A stretch of 64,000 nucleotides of DNA, from contig CAWESL010000005.1 in the NCBI GenBank assembly GCA_963811705.1, forward strand, positions 175,278-239,277, in the 5' to 3' direction. Within the stretch, counting starts at the first letter, position 1. The number at the start of each line of letters is the position of its first letter. A program made the translations under genes and the position numbers. Positions 56,697 through 64,000 of the stretch are shown piece by piece. This DNA comes from Ignavibacteriota bacterium. Lineage in GTDB: Bacteria > Bacteroidota > Ignavibacteria > UBA10030 > UBA6906. Below the pieces are notes generated by a model. It saw nothing but the letters and a program-made list of their open reading frames with translations, had not been told where the DNA came from and did no database searches.

Positions 56697-57738
56697 TTAC
56701 TCCCCCTTGCTCATCTTCGGCCACGAATATCCATACATTGCGATGAGCGCAATACAAAAGAGTGGCACGAGGAAGCTGAACGACATATTGTAAAGATCCC
56801 CAAGGTATCCCATAAGCTCCGGCATGATCGCTCCGCCAATGATCGCCATGACGATGAAACCTGAAGCCCTCTTCGCCTTCACTCCAAGCCCGTGGATGTC
56901 AAGGGCAAAGATCGTCGGAAACATAATCGACATGAAGAAGAAGCTGAGAAACATCGCGCGCTGCCACTGCACCGACGAAATGCGGGTGTGACCAGATGGA
57001 ACGGCTGACGTTGGAGTCGGTTGAGTCGCTCAGGTGATACTCATCCTCTGTATTCAGGTCGGGGACCTTGGCGAAGTAGAAGACCACCGCCATTACAAGG
57101 ACGATCACTGCTACGGCAAGGTAAGGGATGTACAAATGACCCTGGGCGACTTCTGCGTCACCGGCGGAATAAAAGAAGACTCCCCCGATGATGGGACCAA
57201 AAATCCATCCGACACCGTTGAACGATTGAGCAAGATTAATGCGCGCTGCGGCAAACGACTTCGGACCAAGAACCGTTGTATAGGGATTGGCCACCGTCTC
57301 AAGAATTGTCAACCCCATGGCTATGACACACACTCCCAGCAGGAACGCCCAGAATGATGAGATGGATGTTGCAGGAACAAACCAGAATCCGCCCAGCGCG
57401 ACGATCAAGAGCCCGGATATGATGCCTCCTTTGTAACCGAGTTTGCGTGCCAGCCAGCTTGCGGGCATGGCCATCAGAAGATAGCCCAAATAGTGCGCGA
57501 ACTGCACCCAGGCCGACTGTGCCTTTGTCAAATGCAGTTGATCCTGAAAGTGCTTGTCCATCACATCGATCATCCCATTGCAGATTCCCCACAACAAGAA
57601 CAACGTGCTGACGAGTGCAAACGTGAATACGTAGCTCCTGCCATCCTCACTCTTGAACATCTTGGAGAGATCCATGACGACTTCCTTTAGCAACAGCTTG
57701 ACGAGTCGAGCAAGTGACGGCATGCTCATCATCAACAT
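56697..57738 (-). pseudogene. fucP: Degraded L-fucose:H+ symporter (FucP-family MFS transporter)
   Basis: ORF 56899..57738 matches FucP N-terminal half up to …SHPHFVGAVAA then goes out of frame; ORF 56697..56972 matches only the last two TM helices (…FIVMAIIGGAIMPELMG…); ~70 aa of mid-protein missing. Confidence 0.65.
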
Positions 57739-57869
57739 CTATGTCGACGCCCACATCGAATGACAGGGCTAAAGCATGCGTCGAAATGTATCCTTCACAA
57801 AGTTCGAATTCAAGTGAGGGGCAAGACAGATCGCGCAACCCGACTTCCGGCCTTCGAAAAAGCAGCATC

Positions 57870-58268
57870 GGCGGAGGAATTATATCGAATGGCGGGACTA
57901 ATGGACGATGGTGGGGAGTGGCCTGGTGTAAATTTGGGACGAAATGTCGGTTGTCTCACAATCTTAGAGTCCCCATTCTTCATTCCTCCGGCCTCATCTC
58001 CCCTGCGCGCGGCGGCGAAAGCGATAGAGATTTCGTGCACAAACTTGGAATTGTGCTGAAGGAACTGAATGAATCTGCAATCTGGCTGACCTTCATCCAG
58101 GAAGGGAGGTACCTGATGGACTCAGAGCTCGGAAGGATTCAGGAAGAATGCACGACGATGTGCCGAATCATCGCTGCGAGTATCAACACGGTGCGGAAAA
58201 GATGTGAGAATGAGATGGGAAGGAGATTATCGAAAATTGAGAATCGAAAATCGAGGATCGGAAACTGA
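57870..58268 (+). CDS. Four-helix-bundle protein (TIGR02436-like), probably diverged or truncated
   Basis: C-terminal half GGESDRDFVHKLGIVLKELNESAIWL resembles the conserved SxKDFIHKLSIALKEANET motif; N-terminal region of ORF 57714.. is low-complexity. Confidence 0.4.
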   Translation, partial: GGGIISNGGTNGRWWGVAWCKFGTKCRLSHNLRVPILHSSGLISPARGGESDRDFVHKLGIVLKELNESAIWLTFIQEGRYLMDSELGRIQEECTTMCRIIAASINTVRKRCENEMGRRLSKIENRKSRIGN

Positions 58269-58316
58269 TCAGCAATCCTCGATTCTCAATCATCGATCTT
58301 CGATTTTCGATTTTCG
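58229..58316. repeat. Long imperfect palindrome built from CGAAAAT/ATTTTCG heptamer units, centred on CTGATCAG
   Basis: Left arm ATTGAGAATCGAAAATCGAGGAT, right arm ATCCTCGATTCTCAAT…CGATTTTCGATTTTCG; centre 58265-58272. Confidence 0.5.
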
Positions 58317-58334
58317 TGCACCCACCAGGACTCC

Positions 58335-58383
58335 CGTCTCGCCTTCGGCGAGACGAGGCTCGTCCCGAACTTCGTTCGGGACG
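58335..58383. repeat. Two tandem GC-rich hairpins (9-10 bp perfect stems, TTC loops)
   Basis: CGTCTCGCC-ttc-GGCGAGACG (58335-58355) and CGTCCCGAAC-ttc-GTTCGGGACG (58361-58383); no U-tract on either strand. Confidence 0.5.
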
Positions 58384-58397
58384 GCGAACCTGGAAAC

Positions 58398-58445
58398 TGT
58401 GCACCCAGTAGGACTCGAACCTACAACCCACTGATTAAGAGTCCC
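58398..58445 (-). other. tRNA 3-prime fragment (T-arm plus acceptor 3-prime strand); candidate att repeat at island boundary
   Basis: Minus strand reads …GTAGG-TTCGAGT-CCTAC-TGGGTGC-A (canonical T-stem/loop, acceptor, discriminator), but no matching 5-prime acceptor strand (GCACCCA), D-arm or foldable anticodon arm upstream. Confidence 0.5.
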
Positions 58446-59029
58446 AGCTTGGTTAGAGCCGACTTGTGCGAACACCCCTTTTGACAGGATTCCTTGAAGT
58501 CTCTTCACTGGGTCTGATAGTTCCAAACCCAATTGGTCCACAGTCCTGTCTACAGCTTCCCTGCTCGCGCCGATGAAATTGTGTGGGTGATGTTCTTGAC
58601 TCTACTTCAATTTACGAAACGCCAGTTGCCATAGCAAGCCATACATTCTCGCCGTTGTCCCGCATCACATCTTCGAGCCAGTGCCCCCCCACTTTGTCTC
58701 ACAAAGATGCCCCACAACTGCCGACATCATGAACTCCTCGAGGAACAAGACGGCTTCGCAAGAATGACCGCGCATTCTTCACTGCGAGGTTGAATAGACG
58801 GCGCTTTCTTATGGAATGTCCTCATAATGTGACGAATCGAGAACTTGGTTAAACCAGTCGAATCGATATTCTCGCCCTTGGTTTCCTCGTCGCAAAGCCT
58901 ACGGCCCCCTGTCCGTGCAGCCGACAAACAATCTTCTTACTTCATTCGAGTTGCATCAAGGGAGCAATTCACTAGATCGGCTTCAACACTCGCGTATGGG
59001 ACGTTATCTTTGTATATAGCGACTCAGAG

Positions 59030-61696
59030 TCATTCCTTAACTCGCCTTCCGACATCATATTTGGCGTATTTGTTCCGGTAAGTTACCAGTCCACCCTCTA
59101 GGTAGTTAATGACTTCGATGCCAACAGGATCGTGGTCCATTGAACCTTCAAGAGTTACTCTACCTCTGTCTGCATCAGCCTCAAGAACGACGAAACTATC
59201 ACTGTCAGAGGCTACCGCCAAGCTCGAATTATGAGTGGTGAAGATAAACTGACGCCTTTCCTTGCCCTTGCGCAATTTCATACAGACGTCTGTCCAAATG
59301 GATCTGATGTCAAGAGAATCTTCTGGCTGGTCGATCACAATGGGCATGCTTCCATCACTTAGAGCCATGATGAGCATTGCTGTGCATTTCTGACCGACAG
59401 ATAACCTGGCCAAAGGTGCGTGGGAGCCATCCGATAGACAATACTGTATCTGAGGCCTGTCCTGTGGCACCGCCTTGTACTGCAGTTCCAGCAAGTCCTC
59501 TATTTCGACAACATCAAGAAGGTAGTTGGCCAATGTCACGACGGCACCCAATTCCAGGGACACTTTGCTTGCCAGATCTTTCAATCTTTCAGGCTGCCTT
59601 CGGGCTGCGTAGGTGATAATCTTGCCAATGAACTCCCTTGGAGTTACGGATTGACAGATTCTCTCGATATCGGTATCTCGTAGGTACGATCCCCTCTTCA
59701 GCTCACCTAGTCTTTGCTTGAACACGTCCACATTTGAAGCTTCCAGCAGCGTAATCTTTAGCTTCCCAGAAGATTCTTCCTCAAACATCCGGCATTTAGC
59801 TCTTCGATCGGCGCTGAAGGCGCCGTATATCTTGGCCAGCCGATCTAGTCGCTCGTTCCTCTCATCGCTGATTTGTTTCGCTTTGTCCACAAGCTCCTTC
59901 GCCTTGTCCAAGCGACTCTGCGTATCTGCTAGTTCCTTCACAAGCTTTGATCGCTTCGCGGCAACAGCCTGATAGGTGCCTCCCATTTGCCTTACAGTCG
60001 CTTCATAGTCTGCCTTGGCGGCTTTGTATGTAGAGAGCAGCGCGTGTTCCTCTGAGGAAAGACTACCGAGTATTTCATGCAGTCTGTCGCCCAACTCCCT
60101 GAGTTTGAGTTCCACCGCCGCTCTGGTTTCTGAAATCAGTTTTGCAGCCCTCCTCAGGCTTGGGTCATCCGCCACCGAAGCCGGGAAGGCTGGAGTGGGA
60201 ACATCTAGAAAGTACTTCACAGCGGGACCTACTCTTGACGACAACCCCTTGACATAGGCGAGCGACGATTGAAGAGCTTGCTGTTTACCCTCTGCCTTGG
60301 CAAATTTCTCAAACACCGGATTCTTCAGTGACTCGTCGATGCCGATTACTTCAGCGTTGATTGTGTCTATTCGCTTCTTGAGCCCCTCGGTCTCGATGAA
60401 GGCTCGTAGGGCGGCCGCGAGCTGTTTGTCAAGACCCTTCAATTCCCTCTCGAACTGGTCAATGGCTTCAGTATGGGCTTTGAAGTCAAAGAACCTGTCA
60501 ATGAAAGCGAGCTGTTCGTTTTCGTCTTCGGCAATTCTAATGATTTCATTCTGACTGAGAAAGAGTACGGGGAACACTCGCGTAACATCTACAGAAGCAT
60601 CCTCTTGCGGGTTGTTTTCTTCCGGATCATAATGGCGTTTGACTGCTATTCGTCTTCCTGTTTCCAGTACCAAGGTTACCTCGACTGTTCCATATGTCTT
60701 CAGGCACTGTTCTAACTTGCTTCGATGATCGTCCGCTACACCCTCATTGGCTGAGCACTGATCAAGGACAAACCTGAGTAGTTCCACAAGGAGCGACTTG
60801 CCTGATCCCTTTGCACCGATTACACTTGTTAGACCCTCGTGAAATGTGATCGTGCAGCCATCGAGAAAACCACCGAGGATAGAAATGGTTTCTATCCTCG
60901 GAAACACAATCGGCTCGGCAAGTTCGATTCTAATTCGGACGTCTGGATCATCAAAACAGTTCCTCAGACTTTGGAGATCAACTCGCTCCATCTTGAAGTA
61001 CGTTACTCTTATGCCGATGCCCTCGACACTATGGCCACTCTTACCTGCCAGGGCCGGATTGTCCGAAGATTGAATCACAGCAAGTTTCCGCTTATACTCT
61101 GGATCTGTCCCGTCCAGGAAGTCAATTGCCCTTCGTCTGTTGCTCCTCTTCTCCGGATCTAGATTGTCGGTTGCCTCCACAGCATGCAATGATGAATGCT
61201 GAATGACCAGCGTCCTTGAGCGACCCTTCATTTCTGTAAACAACCCGTGACTCGAATTCACGTGAGCCGGTATAGCCAGAGCATCACAATCAGCAATTTG
61301 TGCAATGACTTCAGAAGGAGACCTCTGAACGACAGTGGTTTCCCTGCCATGATCTTCCGGAGATAGACCCAACTTACTTAGAAGGTCTCTGACATGTTCT
61401 CCTCGTTTGGATGGATCAAAAACTGCCAGTATGTGGACCCCGGATCCTGCTTGGGTTGTGATCTCTACACCAGGGAAGACCGCAAGTGGTTTTCCCTCCG
61501 CGGCTGCCTTGATCTTATCAACCCACTCGCCACTGTTATGGTCCGTGATCGCTATGCCTGCAAGGCCTTTACTGATGGCTTGGGCCACGATATCGGCAGC
61601 AATCGCCTCAGCTTTAGCATCAGTGGGATGAATAAAATCTGAAGAAGCGGGAGTGTGAACATGCAGGTCGAGAGAAACATACTTTAATCCTGGCAT
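59030..61696 (-). CDS. PHP-domain phosphoesterase fused to Rad50/SbcC/RecF-like ABC ATPase with long coiled-coil
   Basis: N-terminus LDLHVHTPASSDF…ITDHN…GVEIT…AIPAHV (PHP His/Asp motifs); Walker A GAKGSGKS (~aa 310); ~400 aa coiled-coil-like; C-terminal signature LSVGQK, Walker B IVIDQPEDSLD, H-loop FTTHN. Confidence 0.75.
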   Translation of the reverse strand: MPGLKYVSLDLHVHTPASSDFIHPTDAKAEAIAADIVAQAISKGLAGIAITDHNSGEWVDKIKAAAEGKPLAVFPGVEITTQAGSGVHILAVFDPSKRGEHVRDLLSKLGLSPEDHGRETTVVQRSPSEVIAQIADCDALAIPAHVNSSHGLFTEMKGRSRTLVIQHSSLHAVEATDNLDPEKRSNRRRAIDFLDGTDPEYKRKLAVIQSSDNPALAGKSGHSVEGIGIRVTYFKMERVDLQSLRNCFDDPDVRIRIELAEPIVFPRIETISILGGFLDGCTITFHEGLTSVIGAKGSGKSLLVELLRFVLDQCSANEGVADDHRSKLEQCLKTYGTVEVTLVLETGRRIAVKRHYDPEENNPQEDASVDVTRVFPVLFLSQNEIIRIAEDENEQLAFIDRFFDFKAHTEAIDQFERELKGLDKQLAAALRAFIETEGLKKRIDTINAEVIGIDESLKNPVFEKFAKAEGKQQALQSSLAYVKGLSSRVGPAVKYFLDVPTPAFPASVADDPSLRRAAKLISETRAAVELKLRELGDRLHEILGSLSSEEHALLSTYKAAKADYEATVRQMGGTYQAVAAKRSKLVKELADTQSRLDKAKELVDKAKQISDERNERLDRLAKIYGAFSADRRAKCRMFEEESSGKLKITLLEASNVDVFKQRLGELKRGSYLRDTDIERICQSVTPREFIGKIITYAARRQPERLKDLASKVSLELGAVVTLANYLLDVVEIEDLLELQYKAVPQDRPQIQYCLSDGSHAPLARLSVGQKCTAMLIMALSDGSMPIVIDQPEDSLDIRSIWTDVCMKLRKGKERRQFIFTTHNSSLAVASDSDSFVVLEADADRGRVTLEGSMDHDPVGIEVINYLEGGLVTYRNKYAKYDVGRRVKE

Positions 61697-62047
61697 TATC
61701 GACCCCTCCAGATGCGAATAGGCTTTTCGTGGTACCTCTTTTCCCCCTTGATTGCATGCTGCTGAAAATCTGCGAGCCAGTTTTGGTGATTTCAGGTAGA
61801 ACAGGGCAAACGATATTCCTTCCGGAGGAGTGTGCAGCCCCTCTAGGAGACCTGTAGCCAGATCCTCGAGTTCTCACACCGGTTCGCGAGATCCTTCTCA
61901 GAGCACTATTCTAAGAGTCCTTCGAACGAGACGGGCAGGGACCAATGGATTCCGCAAAGCCTCCAATGGTATCGCTTCCCCTATCCTCGGATGTGCCAAC
62001 TGATTCGCCGGTCCTTTGGCAGGCCAAATAGTGGCAAAGGCCGGCAG

Positions 62048-62560
62048 TCACGACTCCTCCTTGATTGTGCCGTTTTCCTCGACCCTCAGGGTAATCCACT
62101 CGAACCGTTCCCTCTCAACCGCTCTTTCAATAGATCGTTGGAGATCCCTGTGTTGCCCTGAAGATGATTCTCGGTCGAGCAACACGATACGTTTGACCTG
62201 ATCGGCATTCTTCATTCCATCGAAAACGACAAAATCAATAGGATGAAAGAGAACCTTTGCGTCATCTGGATTCAGTCTGCGAGGAGTGAATACAGGATCG
62301 ATCTTCTTGACAACTCTCCCCGCGGCAATGCGCCCTCTTTGCCGGGCTAGCTCCTGTAATTCCTGTTTACGCTCTTCAAGCTTATCTGCCAACGATTCAA
62401 GCCGGTCCGCCTCCGCATCAAGGGTATCCATCCAATCCGTTCTTGGCTTTGTCCTCAAGAAGACTCTGCAATCGCTTAAGCGGATAAACTCCCGGCACCT
62501 AGGACAAATGCCGAAAATCTGTCTCTGGACGTTGAAGAACTTCAATATCTCTTCTTTCAT
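62048..62560 (-). CDS. Small protein: N-terminal CPxC zinc-ribbon-like motif, coiled coil, C-terminal PD-(D/E)xK-like domain
   Basis: 171 aa from MKEEILKF; GICPRCREFIRLSDC; coiled-coil DAEADRLESLADKLEERKQELQELARQR; C-terminal FHPIDFVVFDG…KRIVLLDRE; ATG overlaps upstream stop (ATGA). Confidence 0.55.
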   Translation of the reverse strand: MKEEILKFFNVQRQIFGICPRCREFIRLSDCRVFLRTKPRTDWMDTLDAEADRLESLADKLEERKQELQELARQRGRIAAGRVVKKIDPVFTPRRLNPDDAKVLFHPIDFVVFDGMKNADQVKRIVLLDRESSSGQHRDLQRSIERAVERERFEWITLRVEENGTIKEES

Positions 62561-63065
62561 TTCTTCACCTCCTGCTTGTACACATCCCAAAGGAGGCGTT
62601 TCTTCGCTATAACCGATCGTATTTCCTTTTGGTGGTTGTTCAAGCGTGCATTGCCTGTCTTGATGTCCGTAAATAGAATGCGCTCAACCTTCCCTTTGGC
62701 GCTAAGACCCTCGAAAATGATATAGTCAATCGGGTCGAATAACGAACGGCAGTCATTGGAGTTGAAGCGGAACGATTTCATGGCTGGAGCTAGCCGCTCA
62801 GTATGAATCCAATGTTGATTGATTTGGCTCCCACCTCAGACCGCTTGCTGATGTTCCTTCTCTCTTCCCGCAGTTCCTTTACCTGCTCGCGGAGTTGGGC
62901 AACGCGCTCTTCATAGAGTTTCTCTGCTTCTGGAGTGAAGCTGTCAAGATGAAACAGATGAGCATCCCGAAGACGAATCGTTTCCTGGCAACTTGGACAT
63001 ACCACATAGAATCGCTCATGGGTGAGCGTATGGATGATCTGCTTGGCAATTCCCGAAAGATCCAT
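62557..63065 (-). pseudogene. Tandem paralog of 62048-62560, split into 91-aa N-terminal and 74-aa C-terminal ORFs by a ~26-nt insertion/frameshift
   Basis: 62790..63065 (VVCPSCQETIRLRDAHLF…coiled coil…AKSINIGF) aligns to the N-half and 62557..62781 (FDPIDYIIFEG…ILFTDIKTG) to the C-half of the intact paralog; different frames, 8 nt apart. Confidence 0.5.
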
Positions 63066-63276
63066 CTATCGTGACTCCGAGGTCTCGTTAACTGCCCCCG
63101 CAACAAGGCTACACCAAGTGCATCATCTATGATCGGGAGGAAGAGAATCTGAATTTGGTACCAACAGTGGCCTTTGATCTGCCGGCACTCGTTTGTACTT
63201 CTTACCTTCGATAACACATGACAATGTGATTAGAACATAGTTCGCACCGATCCAGGATGCATCAACCATGTTGTCC

Positions 63277-63746
63277 TCATCGACGTGCGACGCTTAGTCG
63301 CATAGCTTCATTGAGCAGCGCTTCCATGTTGTTGCGAATTTCCGCCAGATCATCGTTTTGCCTGTTTGCTAGATTTACAACGATCTGCGCCGATCGCGGG
63401 GTCAGAAGTCGTTGCGTAAGTATCCCGAGGCCATATAGGGGACTCCATGATGACACCATTGCGGCCTTTACTTCACCTCCGAAGGAATTCGGTTTGAGTC
63501 CAAAAATGCGCAATGGAATTTGATCGGTATTCGATAAGGAAAGGCACCAGCCTCCCCGATTCTGTCTCCGGAAACATCATATTCACCGACCAACTCAGCA
63601 AGGGCCGCGATCGCCTTTTCTACGGTCAACGCGAGTGAATCTCCGCTCAGCCAACTGCTGACCCTCCTCGTATTACTCCCCCACAGTCCAAATCTGACGC
63701 ATGTTAGGAAATCAATCTCATTACTCTTTACCACCTTTAGCCGCAT
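63277..63746 (-). CDS. Two overlapping hypothetical ORFs (92 aa and 78 aa), possibly one frameshifted gene
   Basis: ORF 63468..63746 and 63277..63513 overlap by 46 nt in different frames; no family recognised. Confidence 0.25.
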
Positions 63747-64000
63747 CTTGAATCCACTCTTTCGATGTGTTCGGATGCCTACCGTAATCCAATGACGGCA
63801 ATCTCACCTGCAGTCATCCCAAGTATTCATCAGACAATGTGTCGGTCTGACACCCTAGAGGTAGAGCATCCGCAAGATGTCCACCAGTCTTGGTAGACAC
63901 GACGGTACCCACAAGGTCGGGCAAACGAAAGAGGACCTCCTCCCCCGTTAGATACTCTCAAGCCTATCCCGGGGATTTACGGGCTGCAAACTGGATCTAG

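Follow-up and report, generated by a model that had tools for sequence, protein, structure and literature searches.

A TrlF/Ppl-type PHP-ATPase gene and a PF10107 gene pair in foreign DNA beside a tRNA-Lys fragment of an Ignavibacteriota bacterium

We analysed a stretch of 64,000 nucleotides from the genome of an Ignavibacteriota bacterium (contig CAWESL010000005.1, positions 175,278 to 239,277), hereafter called the window, whose right-hand end differs in composition from the rest and adjoins a truncated tRNA gene. From left to right, this end of the window holds a 42-nt 3' fragment of a tRNA-Lys(CUU) gene (58400..58441); an intact gene for an 888-aa protein of the TrlF/Ppl type, with an N-terminal PHP domain and an SMC/Rad50-like ABC ATPase that has a coiled-coil insert (59030..61696); two small genes of the family PF10107, one intact (62048..62560) and one frameshifted (62557..63065); and a further frameshifted small gene (63277..63746), all on the minus strand. 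The low-GC segment to which the genes belong (58442..64000) continues past the right-hand end of the window. The large protein is a member of the TrlF family and probably a stand-alone defence nuclease resembling the anti-phage protein Ppl, carried on a horizontally acquired element together with units that are independent of it.

An intact gene of the TrlF/Ppl type

A first-pass annotation, made from the sequence alone, had taken the 888-aa protein for a fusion of a PHP phosphoesterase with an ABC ATPase and had pointed to a RefSeq label for such fusions. Pfam, AlphaFold2 (AF2) modelling and Foldseek all bear out the fusion, and such a label exists: NF045780 'TrlF family AAA-like ATPase' of NCBIfam matches the protein with 365.5 bits (E = 9.6e-109), above the curated cutoff of 350 and over nearly its full length, residues 9-869 aligning with profile positions 8-932 of 944. 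The Ppl models of NCBIfam and PADLOC are the next-best matches. That of PADLOC (PDLC02208) scores 158.9 bits (E = 3.9e-47), which is the outcome of the PADLOC search that had been proposed for this protein, and the Foldseek search proposed along with it matched both ATPase heads of the SMC/Rad50 type and a PHP domain. Aligned with the Ppl of a Klebsiella plasmid (WP_101883328), the protein stays collinear with it from residue 1 to residue 879 (25% identity, E = 4e-51), and all motifs are in register. Its homologues number more than 1000, are about 890 aa long and reach 71% identity, and the closest relative in a scan of genome contigs is 47% identical. Judged by sequence, we therefore place the protein as a divergent addition to the named TrlF family, which is a sister family to Ppl, and regard it as a homologue, not an equivalog, of the latter.

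The protein has all the parts expected of such a fusion. Pfam finds PHP (PF02811, aa 10-82), AAA_23, AAA_15, SMC_N and AAA_21 (aa 761-826), and the AF2 model has a mean predicted local distance difference test score (pLDDT) of 84.2, with values of about 90 in the PHP barrel. The conservation of the motifs was assessed in an alignment of 27 homologues, the window protein included. The PHP domain (aa 1-255; 60932..61696, minus strand) is a predicted metal-dependent nuclease module whose best Foldseek match is the PHP domain of RNase AM (7ug9, TM 0.68). Its residues D10, H12, H14, D52, H53, E78, H88, H145, D212 and H222 are invariant and would be the metal-binding residues of the PHP motifs. Then comes the N-lobe of the ABC ATPase head (aa 267-403; 60488..60898, minus strand), covered by AAA_23, AAA_15 and SMC_N, with the Walker A motif GAKGSGKS at aa 294-301, in which G294, K296, G297, G299, K300 and S301 (GxKGxGKS) are invariant. 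The coiled-coil insert (aa 406-641; 59774..60481, minus strand) is modelled as four long helices (aa 406-456, 460-497, 512-571 and 575-641), and the loop at its apex (aa 498-511, DVPTPAFPASVADD) contains no cysteine and hence no CxxC zinc hook. A helical domain (aa 655-741 in the AF2 model) lies between the coiled coil and the C-lobe of the head (aa 747-880; 59057..59458, minus strand), which carries the signature LSVGQK, the Walker B motif VIDQPED and the H-loop histidine H822. Here S766, G768, Q769, K770, D789, Q790, P791, E792, D793 and H822 are invariant, and the lobe has a sequence match to the C-lobe of AriA. When the ATPase head was compared with the PDB by Foldseek, the matches were the heads of SMC, MukB, Rad50, JetC, RecF, RecN and LmuB; no structure of a Ppl or TrlF protein was found in the PDB by sequence, profile or Foldseek.

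The genomic surroundings of the homologues are those of a gene that travels alone. We fetched 87 loci around homologues of the TrlF clade, among which 46 have the gene in full length, and collected 81 nearest neighbours. Clustering of the neighbours at the 46 full-length loci gave no family present in more than five of them, the recurrent ones being serine recombinases, DNA methyltransferases and restriction helicases, and no Pfam family occurs among more than three of the 81 nearest neighbours. The latter include a sprinkling of genes of defence and mobility, such as Type III, IIG and IV restriction enzymes, DpdF, PsyrT, components of MADS, PD-T4-6, integrases and resolvases. The closest homologue (P0001) adjoins an operon of DUF1156, DUF499 and SNF2 genes; others adjoin serine recombinases. 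The organisation is thus that of a single gene without a recurrent partner, as in Ppl. The clade is scattered in patches over many bacterial lineages, Patescibacteria and archaea. Relatives occur in 893 plasmid records, 632 of them conjugative, with a match covering at least 80% of the query in only 48, so that most of the 893 may be partial matches to the ATPase. The annotated TrlF and Ppl genes of plasmids are solitary and lie near toxin-antitoxin, abortive infection (Abi), recombinase and insertion sequence (IS) genes, and no relative of the TrlF clade was found in IMG/VR viral contigs. Such a pattern is what one expects of a defence gene that stands alone and moves horizontally, and not of a housekeeping repair enzyme.

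Foreign DNA beside a truncated tRNA-Lys gene

The GC content of 58442-64000 is 0.499, about 6.8 standard deviations (SD) under that of the host, for which we took windows of the size of the segment (5.56 kb) within positions 1-56000 as reference (0.5646 +/- 0.0096, minimum 0.547; the bulk of the whole window has 0.565). The correlation of its tetranucleotides with the bulk is 0.583, compared with 0.924 +/- 0.016 in the host windows, and the GC content at third codon positions (GC3) is 0.51 in the 888-aa gene, against 0.70 in the adjoining mannosidase gene. The profiles of GC and tetranucleotides, whose computation the first-pass annotation had recommended, thus agree that the segment is atypical. 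The fall to about 50% GC that had been estimated by eye is confirmed; the baseline of 58-62% is not, since we measured about 56.5%. The claim that the fall coincides with the tRNA fragment is good only to about 1.8 kb, as the best single change point lies at about 56.6 kb, not at 58.45 kb, and a second step in GC at 58441 is not significant and cannot be separated from it (2dLL = 1.65).

The tRNA fragment itself is genuine and, as had been proposed, of the kind left by site-specific integration. It spans 42 nt on the minus strand (58400..58441), with the anticodon loop at one end and the discriminator base at the other. The Rfam model RF00005 matches it as a 5'-truncated tRNA at model positions 31-71 (27.1 bits, E = 1.9e-4) when the stretch is trimmed to let the model accept a truncated end; ARAGORN calls no tRNA gene anywhere in the window. 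The T-arm (GTAGG/TTCGAGT/CCTAC), the 3' strand of the acceptor and the anticodon loop CUCUUAA are intact, and from this loop we read the tRNA as Lys(CUU). The foreign DNA lies on the 5' side of the fragment on the tRNA strand, that is, at higher window coordinates, and two GC-rich hairpins (~58340-58395) follow the fragment, between it and a shorter repeat of the tRNA 3' end. A native tRNA 3' end that had been displaced would be arranged in this way, and 58400-58441 looks like an attR scar. The segment 58442-64000 is compositionally foreign DNA and probably the distal part of an element inserted in the tRNA-Lys gene. The intact tRNA-Lys(CUU), which would end in CTCTTAATCAGTGGGTTGTAGGTTCGAGTCCTACTGGGTGCA, and the integrase would sit beyond 64 kb. 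Pfam searches of the visible part, 58442-64000, gave no integrase signal. A stretch between the tRNA fragment and the TrlF gene that might have been a remnant of an integrase ('FSIRHIMRTF') was discarded after a Pfam search returned nothing at E <= 1.

The shorter copy of the tRNA 3' end has 17 nt (GAGTCCTGGTGGGTGCA; 58317..58333, minus strand; direct repeat D3), matches GAGTCCTNNTGGGTGCA exactly and lies 83 nt from the 42-nt fragment. About 0.10 matches would be expected by chance, and none of 100 shuffled sequences gave two. An earlier event at this site, an integration or an excision, may have left it behind, and it suggests that integration took place more than once. Further evidence comes from other genomes. 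A scan of metagenome contigs with a 22-mer from the 3' end of the fragment returned 15 loci. Intact tRNA-Lys(ctt) genes that share this 3' end are found in three of them (L089, L093 and L099), and another three have the same sequence from the anticodon loop onwards, without the 5' half and without an ARAGORN call (L091:143-186, L094:1931-1974 and L098:1287-1331). The recurrence of such 5'-truncated tRNA-Lys(CUU) fragments in three unrelated contigs is typical of an att core that is used repeatedly and fits an integration scar. The sequences upstream of these three fragments, on the side of the element, are alike among themselves and unlike those of the window, and a different family of elements appears to use the same att core there. 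None of the 15 loci has the flanks of the window, no empty site is found among them, and the full 42-mer has no match in the metagenome contigs.

To the left of the tRNA fragment, the stretch at 56.6-58.4 kb already has a GC content of about 0.52. It contains a split transporter gene of the major facilitator superfamily (MFS), likely a pseudogene, in two open reading frames (ORFs) of 279 and 91 aa (56697-57738, minus strand), which the insertion of the island does not explain because it lies on the other side of the scar. It also contains a truncated ORF for a four-helix bundle of the 23S rRNA IVP type (57714-58268), directly followed, at 58213-58327, by an array of densely packed palindromes built from units like ATCGAAAATCGAGGATCG, in which several inverted repeats of 22-32 nt overlap. 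This array was the source of a spurious match to MIR5020 in Rfam; it and a match to Plastid-ycf2 were set aside as by-products of the palindromic repeat and of the antisense tRNA sequence. The first 56 kb of the window are ordinary chromosome with long intact genes, e.g., those for GltB (1549 aa), GltD, a TonB-dependent receptor and a two-component system of the NtrC type, so that the frameshifts near the right-hand end are unlikely to reflect a general sequencing error.

The PF10107 pair and the rest of the segment

The two small genes to the right of the TrlF gene had been described as tandem copies of a protein with a Zn-ribbon, a coiled coil and a PD-(D/E)xK-like nuclease fold, one intact and one split. 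The assignment to a PD-(D/E)xK-type family and the state of the genes stand. Both proteins score above the gathering score of 23.8 bits of PF10107 (Endonuc_Holl; Hjc-like PD-(D/E)xK). EH-B (62048..62560, minus strand) is intact, codes for 170 aa and reaches 54.9 bits (E = 1.2e-14); it starts at MKEEIL and not at the upstream TTG, and its ATG overlaps the stop of the preceding gene as ATGA. This preceding gene, EH-A (62557..63065, minus strand), has lost one nucleotide between 62800 and 62799 and is likely a pseudogene; PF10107 gives 69.9 bits for its C-terminal piece and 85.7 bits for the stitched protein. Comparison with the loci L106 and L107 places the lost base outside any homopolymer run, and the stitched EH-A has 85% identity with its undamaged counterpart in L106. 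EH-B has 355 homologues of about 169 aa, with a best identity of 79%.

What does not stand is that these are tandem copies. EH-A and EH-B are only about 30% identical to each other and so are not recent copies. Across loci, the A and B types share about 25-29% identity, whereas orthologues are 35-85% identical (54-85% among the cellular loci). They also differ in the catalytic motif, PID...[DE]IK in the A type and PID...LDRE without lysine in the B type (HPID...LDRE in EH-B). The Zn-ribbon fares no better: there is one CPxC-type knuckle in each protein, and its second cysteine is not conserved in the B type. The order is A then B in nine of nine loci, the window and eight others, which include an archaeon and two viral contigs. 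Where genes were called, in five loci, the overlap of the two is 4 nt; in the archaeal L116 and in L117, from Ignavibacteria, a few nucleotides separate them. These comparisons of sequence and gene order point to an anciently diverged but conserved heterologous pair. The AF2 monomer of EH-B is of low confidence (pLDDT 62), which fits a protein that is modelled without its obligate partner but proves nothing.

The contexts of the pair are diverse and rich in genes for DNA restriction and modification. They comprise a DraIII-like enzyme and a methyltransferase (L106); a PLD/SNF2 helicase cluster on one side and a DUF1848/DEAD helicase cluster on the other (L107-109); a UPF0175/DUF3368 toxin-antitoxin pair (L110-112); N6_N4 methyltransferase and XhoI genes ~5 kb away (L115); MAD7 and a type I/IIG restriction-modification system in a Thermoproteota archaeon (L116); SIR2 and HerA (L117); QueD and GTP cyclohydrolase, of 7-deazaguanine synthesis, with a glycosyltransferase in a viral contig (L118); and DNA methyltransferases in another viral contig (L119). 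The window and its closest relative, L106, have in common only a cassette of 1.03 kb (78% nucleotide identity), and by this alignment it is only the ~1-kb cassette that seems to move between contexts.

Constant order, overlap, mobility as a cassette and neighbours from restriction-modification, defence and viral DNA modification lead us to consider the pair as a candidate two-subunit system. It is possible, but far from assured, that this is an undescribed nuclease system that acts in conflicts based on DNA modification, for instance as a heteromeric enzyme of a restriction type able to tell modified DNA from unmodified. We found no functional literature on the pair under its Pfam or COG identifiers. 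In PADLOC-DB v2, EH-B and the C-terminal piece of EH-A have no match at E <= 0.01, and the N-terminal piece of EH-A gives only weak coiled-coil noise.

The first-pass annotation had united the large gene and the two small ones in a single defence module and had proposed to look for the trio in other genomes. The trio is not conserved: a tblastn search of the 87 TrlF-clade loci with the three small ORFs gave no match, a TrlF gene is present at none of the eight other loci of the pair, and in the window a gap of 351 nt separates the 888-aa gene from the unit of small genes. A small ORF with a KTSC domain lies directly upstream of a TrlF homologue in one locus (L004:7564-7776) and of the PF10107 pair in another (L117:3977-4195); this may be a coincidence or a shared accessory gene.

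The remaining gene of the segment (63277..63746, minus strand) is frameshifted into ORFs of 92 and 78 aa and would have coded for a protein of ~160 aa, without a match in Pfam or NCBIfam. Its N-terminal domain of ~90 aa has 124 relatives in a representative library. Some of these are small proteins; in others the domain is joined to Metallophos (P0264) or to an AAA_5 module resembling that of McrB (P0300), and its role may be to bind DNA or to read modifications. One sequence in a library of 15 billion proteins (P0241) is 100% identical to the 92-aa ORF. No convincing ORF is seen in the final 250 nt of the window, and a scan for promoters and terminators gave counts that were not above the shuffled expectation.

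A probable stand-alone defence nuclease and its relation to known systems

Taken together, these results make it probable that a horizontally acquired element at tRNA-Lys(CUU) carries several independent units, and that the 888-aa protein is among them as a stand-alone Ppl-like defence nuclease. Ppl is listed with dsr1, tmn, qatABCD, hhe and upx under one reference, Gao et al. 2020. It is a single-gene anti-phage system, still called uncharacterised in 2024, that restricts T7 as well as Bas63 lacking gp130, the protein by which Bas63 counters it (PMC11482910). In the summary that a review gives of Xu et al. (Mol Cell 2026), the Ppl of E. coli is a 3'-5' exonuclease of single-stranded DNA (ssDNA) that is inhibited by nucleoside triphosphates (NTPs) at both the PHP and the NTPase domain; according to the same summary, it is activated by the depletion of nucleotides caused by the phage together with the 3'-OH ends made by a phage homing endonuclease (PMC12904381). 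The family of the large protein is defence-associated, and its sister family, Ppl, is anti-phage.

The events at the locus might then have been as follows. The element would have inserted in the tRNA-Lys(CUU) gene and left the displaced native 3' end at 58400-58441. Its visible cargo would be a defence-island-like set made of the stand-alone TrlF/Ppl-type protein, the PF10107 A/B cassette with a broken A gene, and the frameshifted small gene. By homology with the Ppl of E. coli, the 888-aa protein would most likely work alone. Nucleotides and DNA ends would be sensed by its SMC-like ABC head, for which dimerisation by way of the coiled coil and of engaged heads is probable, and its N-terminal PHP domain would be a metal-dependent 3'-5' exonuclease. 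Bound NTPs would hold this nuclease off, and the depletion of NTPs by an infection, together with exposed 3'-OH DNA ends, would release it, resulting in a putative anti-phage activity in the host.

A number of arguments weigh against this proposal. First, the score of 216 bits against NF042955 'anti-phage protein Ppl' does not reach the equivalog cutoff of 1000, and at 25% identity the mechanism is transferred across a family boundary. Second, we found no published experiment on TrlF-family proteins, no function for them and no origin of the name TrlF. Third, many of the homologue loci have ordinary metabolic neighbours. Fourth, GC already falls ~1.8 kb before the tRNA fragment is reached from the left, and the window ends short of the element's other boundary, where the integrase and the intact tRNA would lie. 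Fifth, several neighbouring genes are pseudogenes, as in an island that is decaying, and the 888-aa gene may not be expressed.

Some of these observations would also suit other explanations. The one that survives best, which we nevertheless hold to be unlikely, is that TrlF-type proteins serve the mobile elements themselves, in the competition or exclusion between plasmids or integrative and conjugative elements (ICEs), or in a Wadjet-like action against plasmids. The 632 conjugative plasmids among the 893 records would be accounted for in this way, as would the serine recombinases and integrases that are the commonest neighbours, the lack of TrlF-clade relatives among the IMG/VR viral contigs and the presence of JetC among the structural matches. 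But the plasmid matches are perhaps mostly to the ATPase, with only the 48 records mentioned above covering at least 80% of the query; phages (T7, and Bas63 without gp130) are restricted by Ppl, whose architecture is the same; and the contexts do not discriminate, because defence genes are also a typical cargo of mobile elements.

We give a still smaller probability to the segment being an inert, decaying relic whose genes have no present function in the host. EH-A and the gene at 63277-63746 are frameshifted, the genes for the MFS transporter and the four-helix bundle to the left are broken, no integrase is present in the visible part, and the integrity of long chromosomal genes such as that of the 1549-aa GltB makes sequencing errors an improbable cause. 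Against this, the 2.7-kb ORF of the TrlF type is uninterrupted and has kept every residue that is invariant in the family, and EH-B is intact. It is very improbable that the stand-alone defence nuclease we favour is instead a housekeeping enzyme of DNA repair, a fused analogue of SbcCD or RecN that would process DNA ends or hairpins. In structure, SMC, Rad50, RecN and RecF come nearest to the ATPase head, and PHP domains are proofreading exonucleases in PolX and PolC (PMC11482910), in agreement with a match to 3f2b; yet the patchy distribution across phyla and domains, the variable neighbours, the plasmid-borne relatives, the location in foreign DNA at a tRNA scar and the anti-phage activity demonstrated by experiment for the sister family all argue otherwise. 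Finally, a system of three genes, with the PHP-ATPase as sensor or motor and the small PD-(D/E)xK proteins as effector nucleases, as in SbcCD, Lamassu or Gabija, is hardly credible, for even if the genes share one strand, 4 kb and the same foreign segment, and ABC/SMC-type ATPases are often paired with nucleases in defence (as in the PADLOC side-matches LmuB, AriA and GajA), it is largely refuted by the lack of co-occurrence at the 87 TrlF and the eight pair loci, to which are added the 46 full-length loci without a conserved neighbour, the restriction of the homology with L106 to the 1.03-kb pair, the 351-nt gap and the large protein having a nuclease domain of its own.

The 888-aa protein is another divergent member of the TrlF/Ppl group, which changes little by itself. 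Its environmental clade keeps every catalytic residue at ~25% identity to Ppl, which makes it useful for testing how general the mechanism of Ppl is. The PF10107 pair is the only potentially new element of the segment and a candidate for a new nuclease system that could be tested cheaply.

The comparison with known systems separates what is shared in the ATPase from what is shared in the whole protein. With SbcCD and Mre11-Rad50, to which the first-pass annotation had likened it, the 888-aa protein has in common a phosphoesterase nuclease and an ABC head of the SMC/Rad50 type that is split by an antiparallel coiled coil. The analogy holds for the fold of the ATPase and fails for the Mre11-type subunit and the zinc hook: the nuclease is a PHP domain in cis instead of a separate calcineurin-type Mre11/SbcD, no Metallophos match is found in the segment, each arm of the short coiled coil has ~90-130 residues, the CxxC hook is lacking, and the sequence similarity to Rad50 is marginal. 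The ATPases of OLD, PARIS and Gabija (AriA, GajA and class 1 OLD) resemble it in a C-lobe with a Walker B motif of the 'DQPE' type, as in AriA, and PADLOC gives weak matches to AriA, GajA and PtuA, which belong to defence systems made of an ATPase and a nuclease. The likeness is confined to the ATPase lobes; the nuclease of the 888-aa protein is PHP, not TOPRIM or HNH, and there is no partner gene.

The small proteins, for their part, have a counterpart in PF10107/COG4741, the 'endonuclease related to archaeal Holliday junction resolvase', a predicted minimal PD-(D/E)xK nuclease (PMC1189080). Both of them match this family, and the A type retains its acidic and D/E-x-K residues (PMC1189080). 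In the literature, these are single, possibly membrane-anchored proteins of unknown function, whereas here and in the eight other loci they form an ordered A/B pair with an N-terminal CPxC hairpin, a long helix and no hydrophobic N-terminus, and in the B type D-R-E replaces (D/E)-x-K.

The closest likeness is to the TrlF family and to Ppl. Proteins of NF045780 share the PHP and ABC/SMC-like ATPase architecture and a similar length, and the gene stands alone as do the TrlF genes of plasmids; the retrieved proteins encoded by the latter are only ~25% identical to that of the window, a protein of an environmental clade in which the other members show 45-71% identity to it. Ppl has the same single-gene organisation, nearly the same length (892 aa, compared with 888), the same order of domains and catalytic motifs that align, and it differs in sequence, at 25% identity, and in its host, an enterobacterium there and an environmental bacterium here. 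It is on this likeness to Ppl that the mechanism proposed for the 888-aa protein is based.

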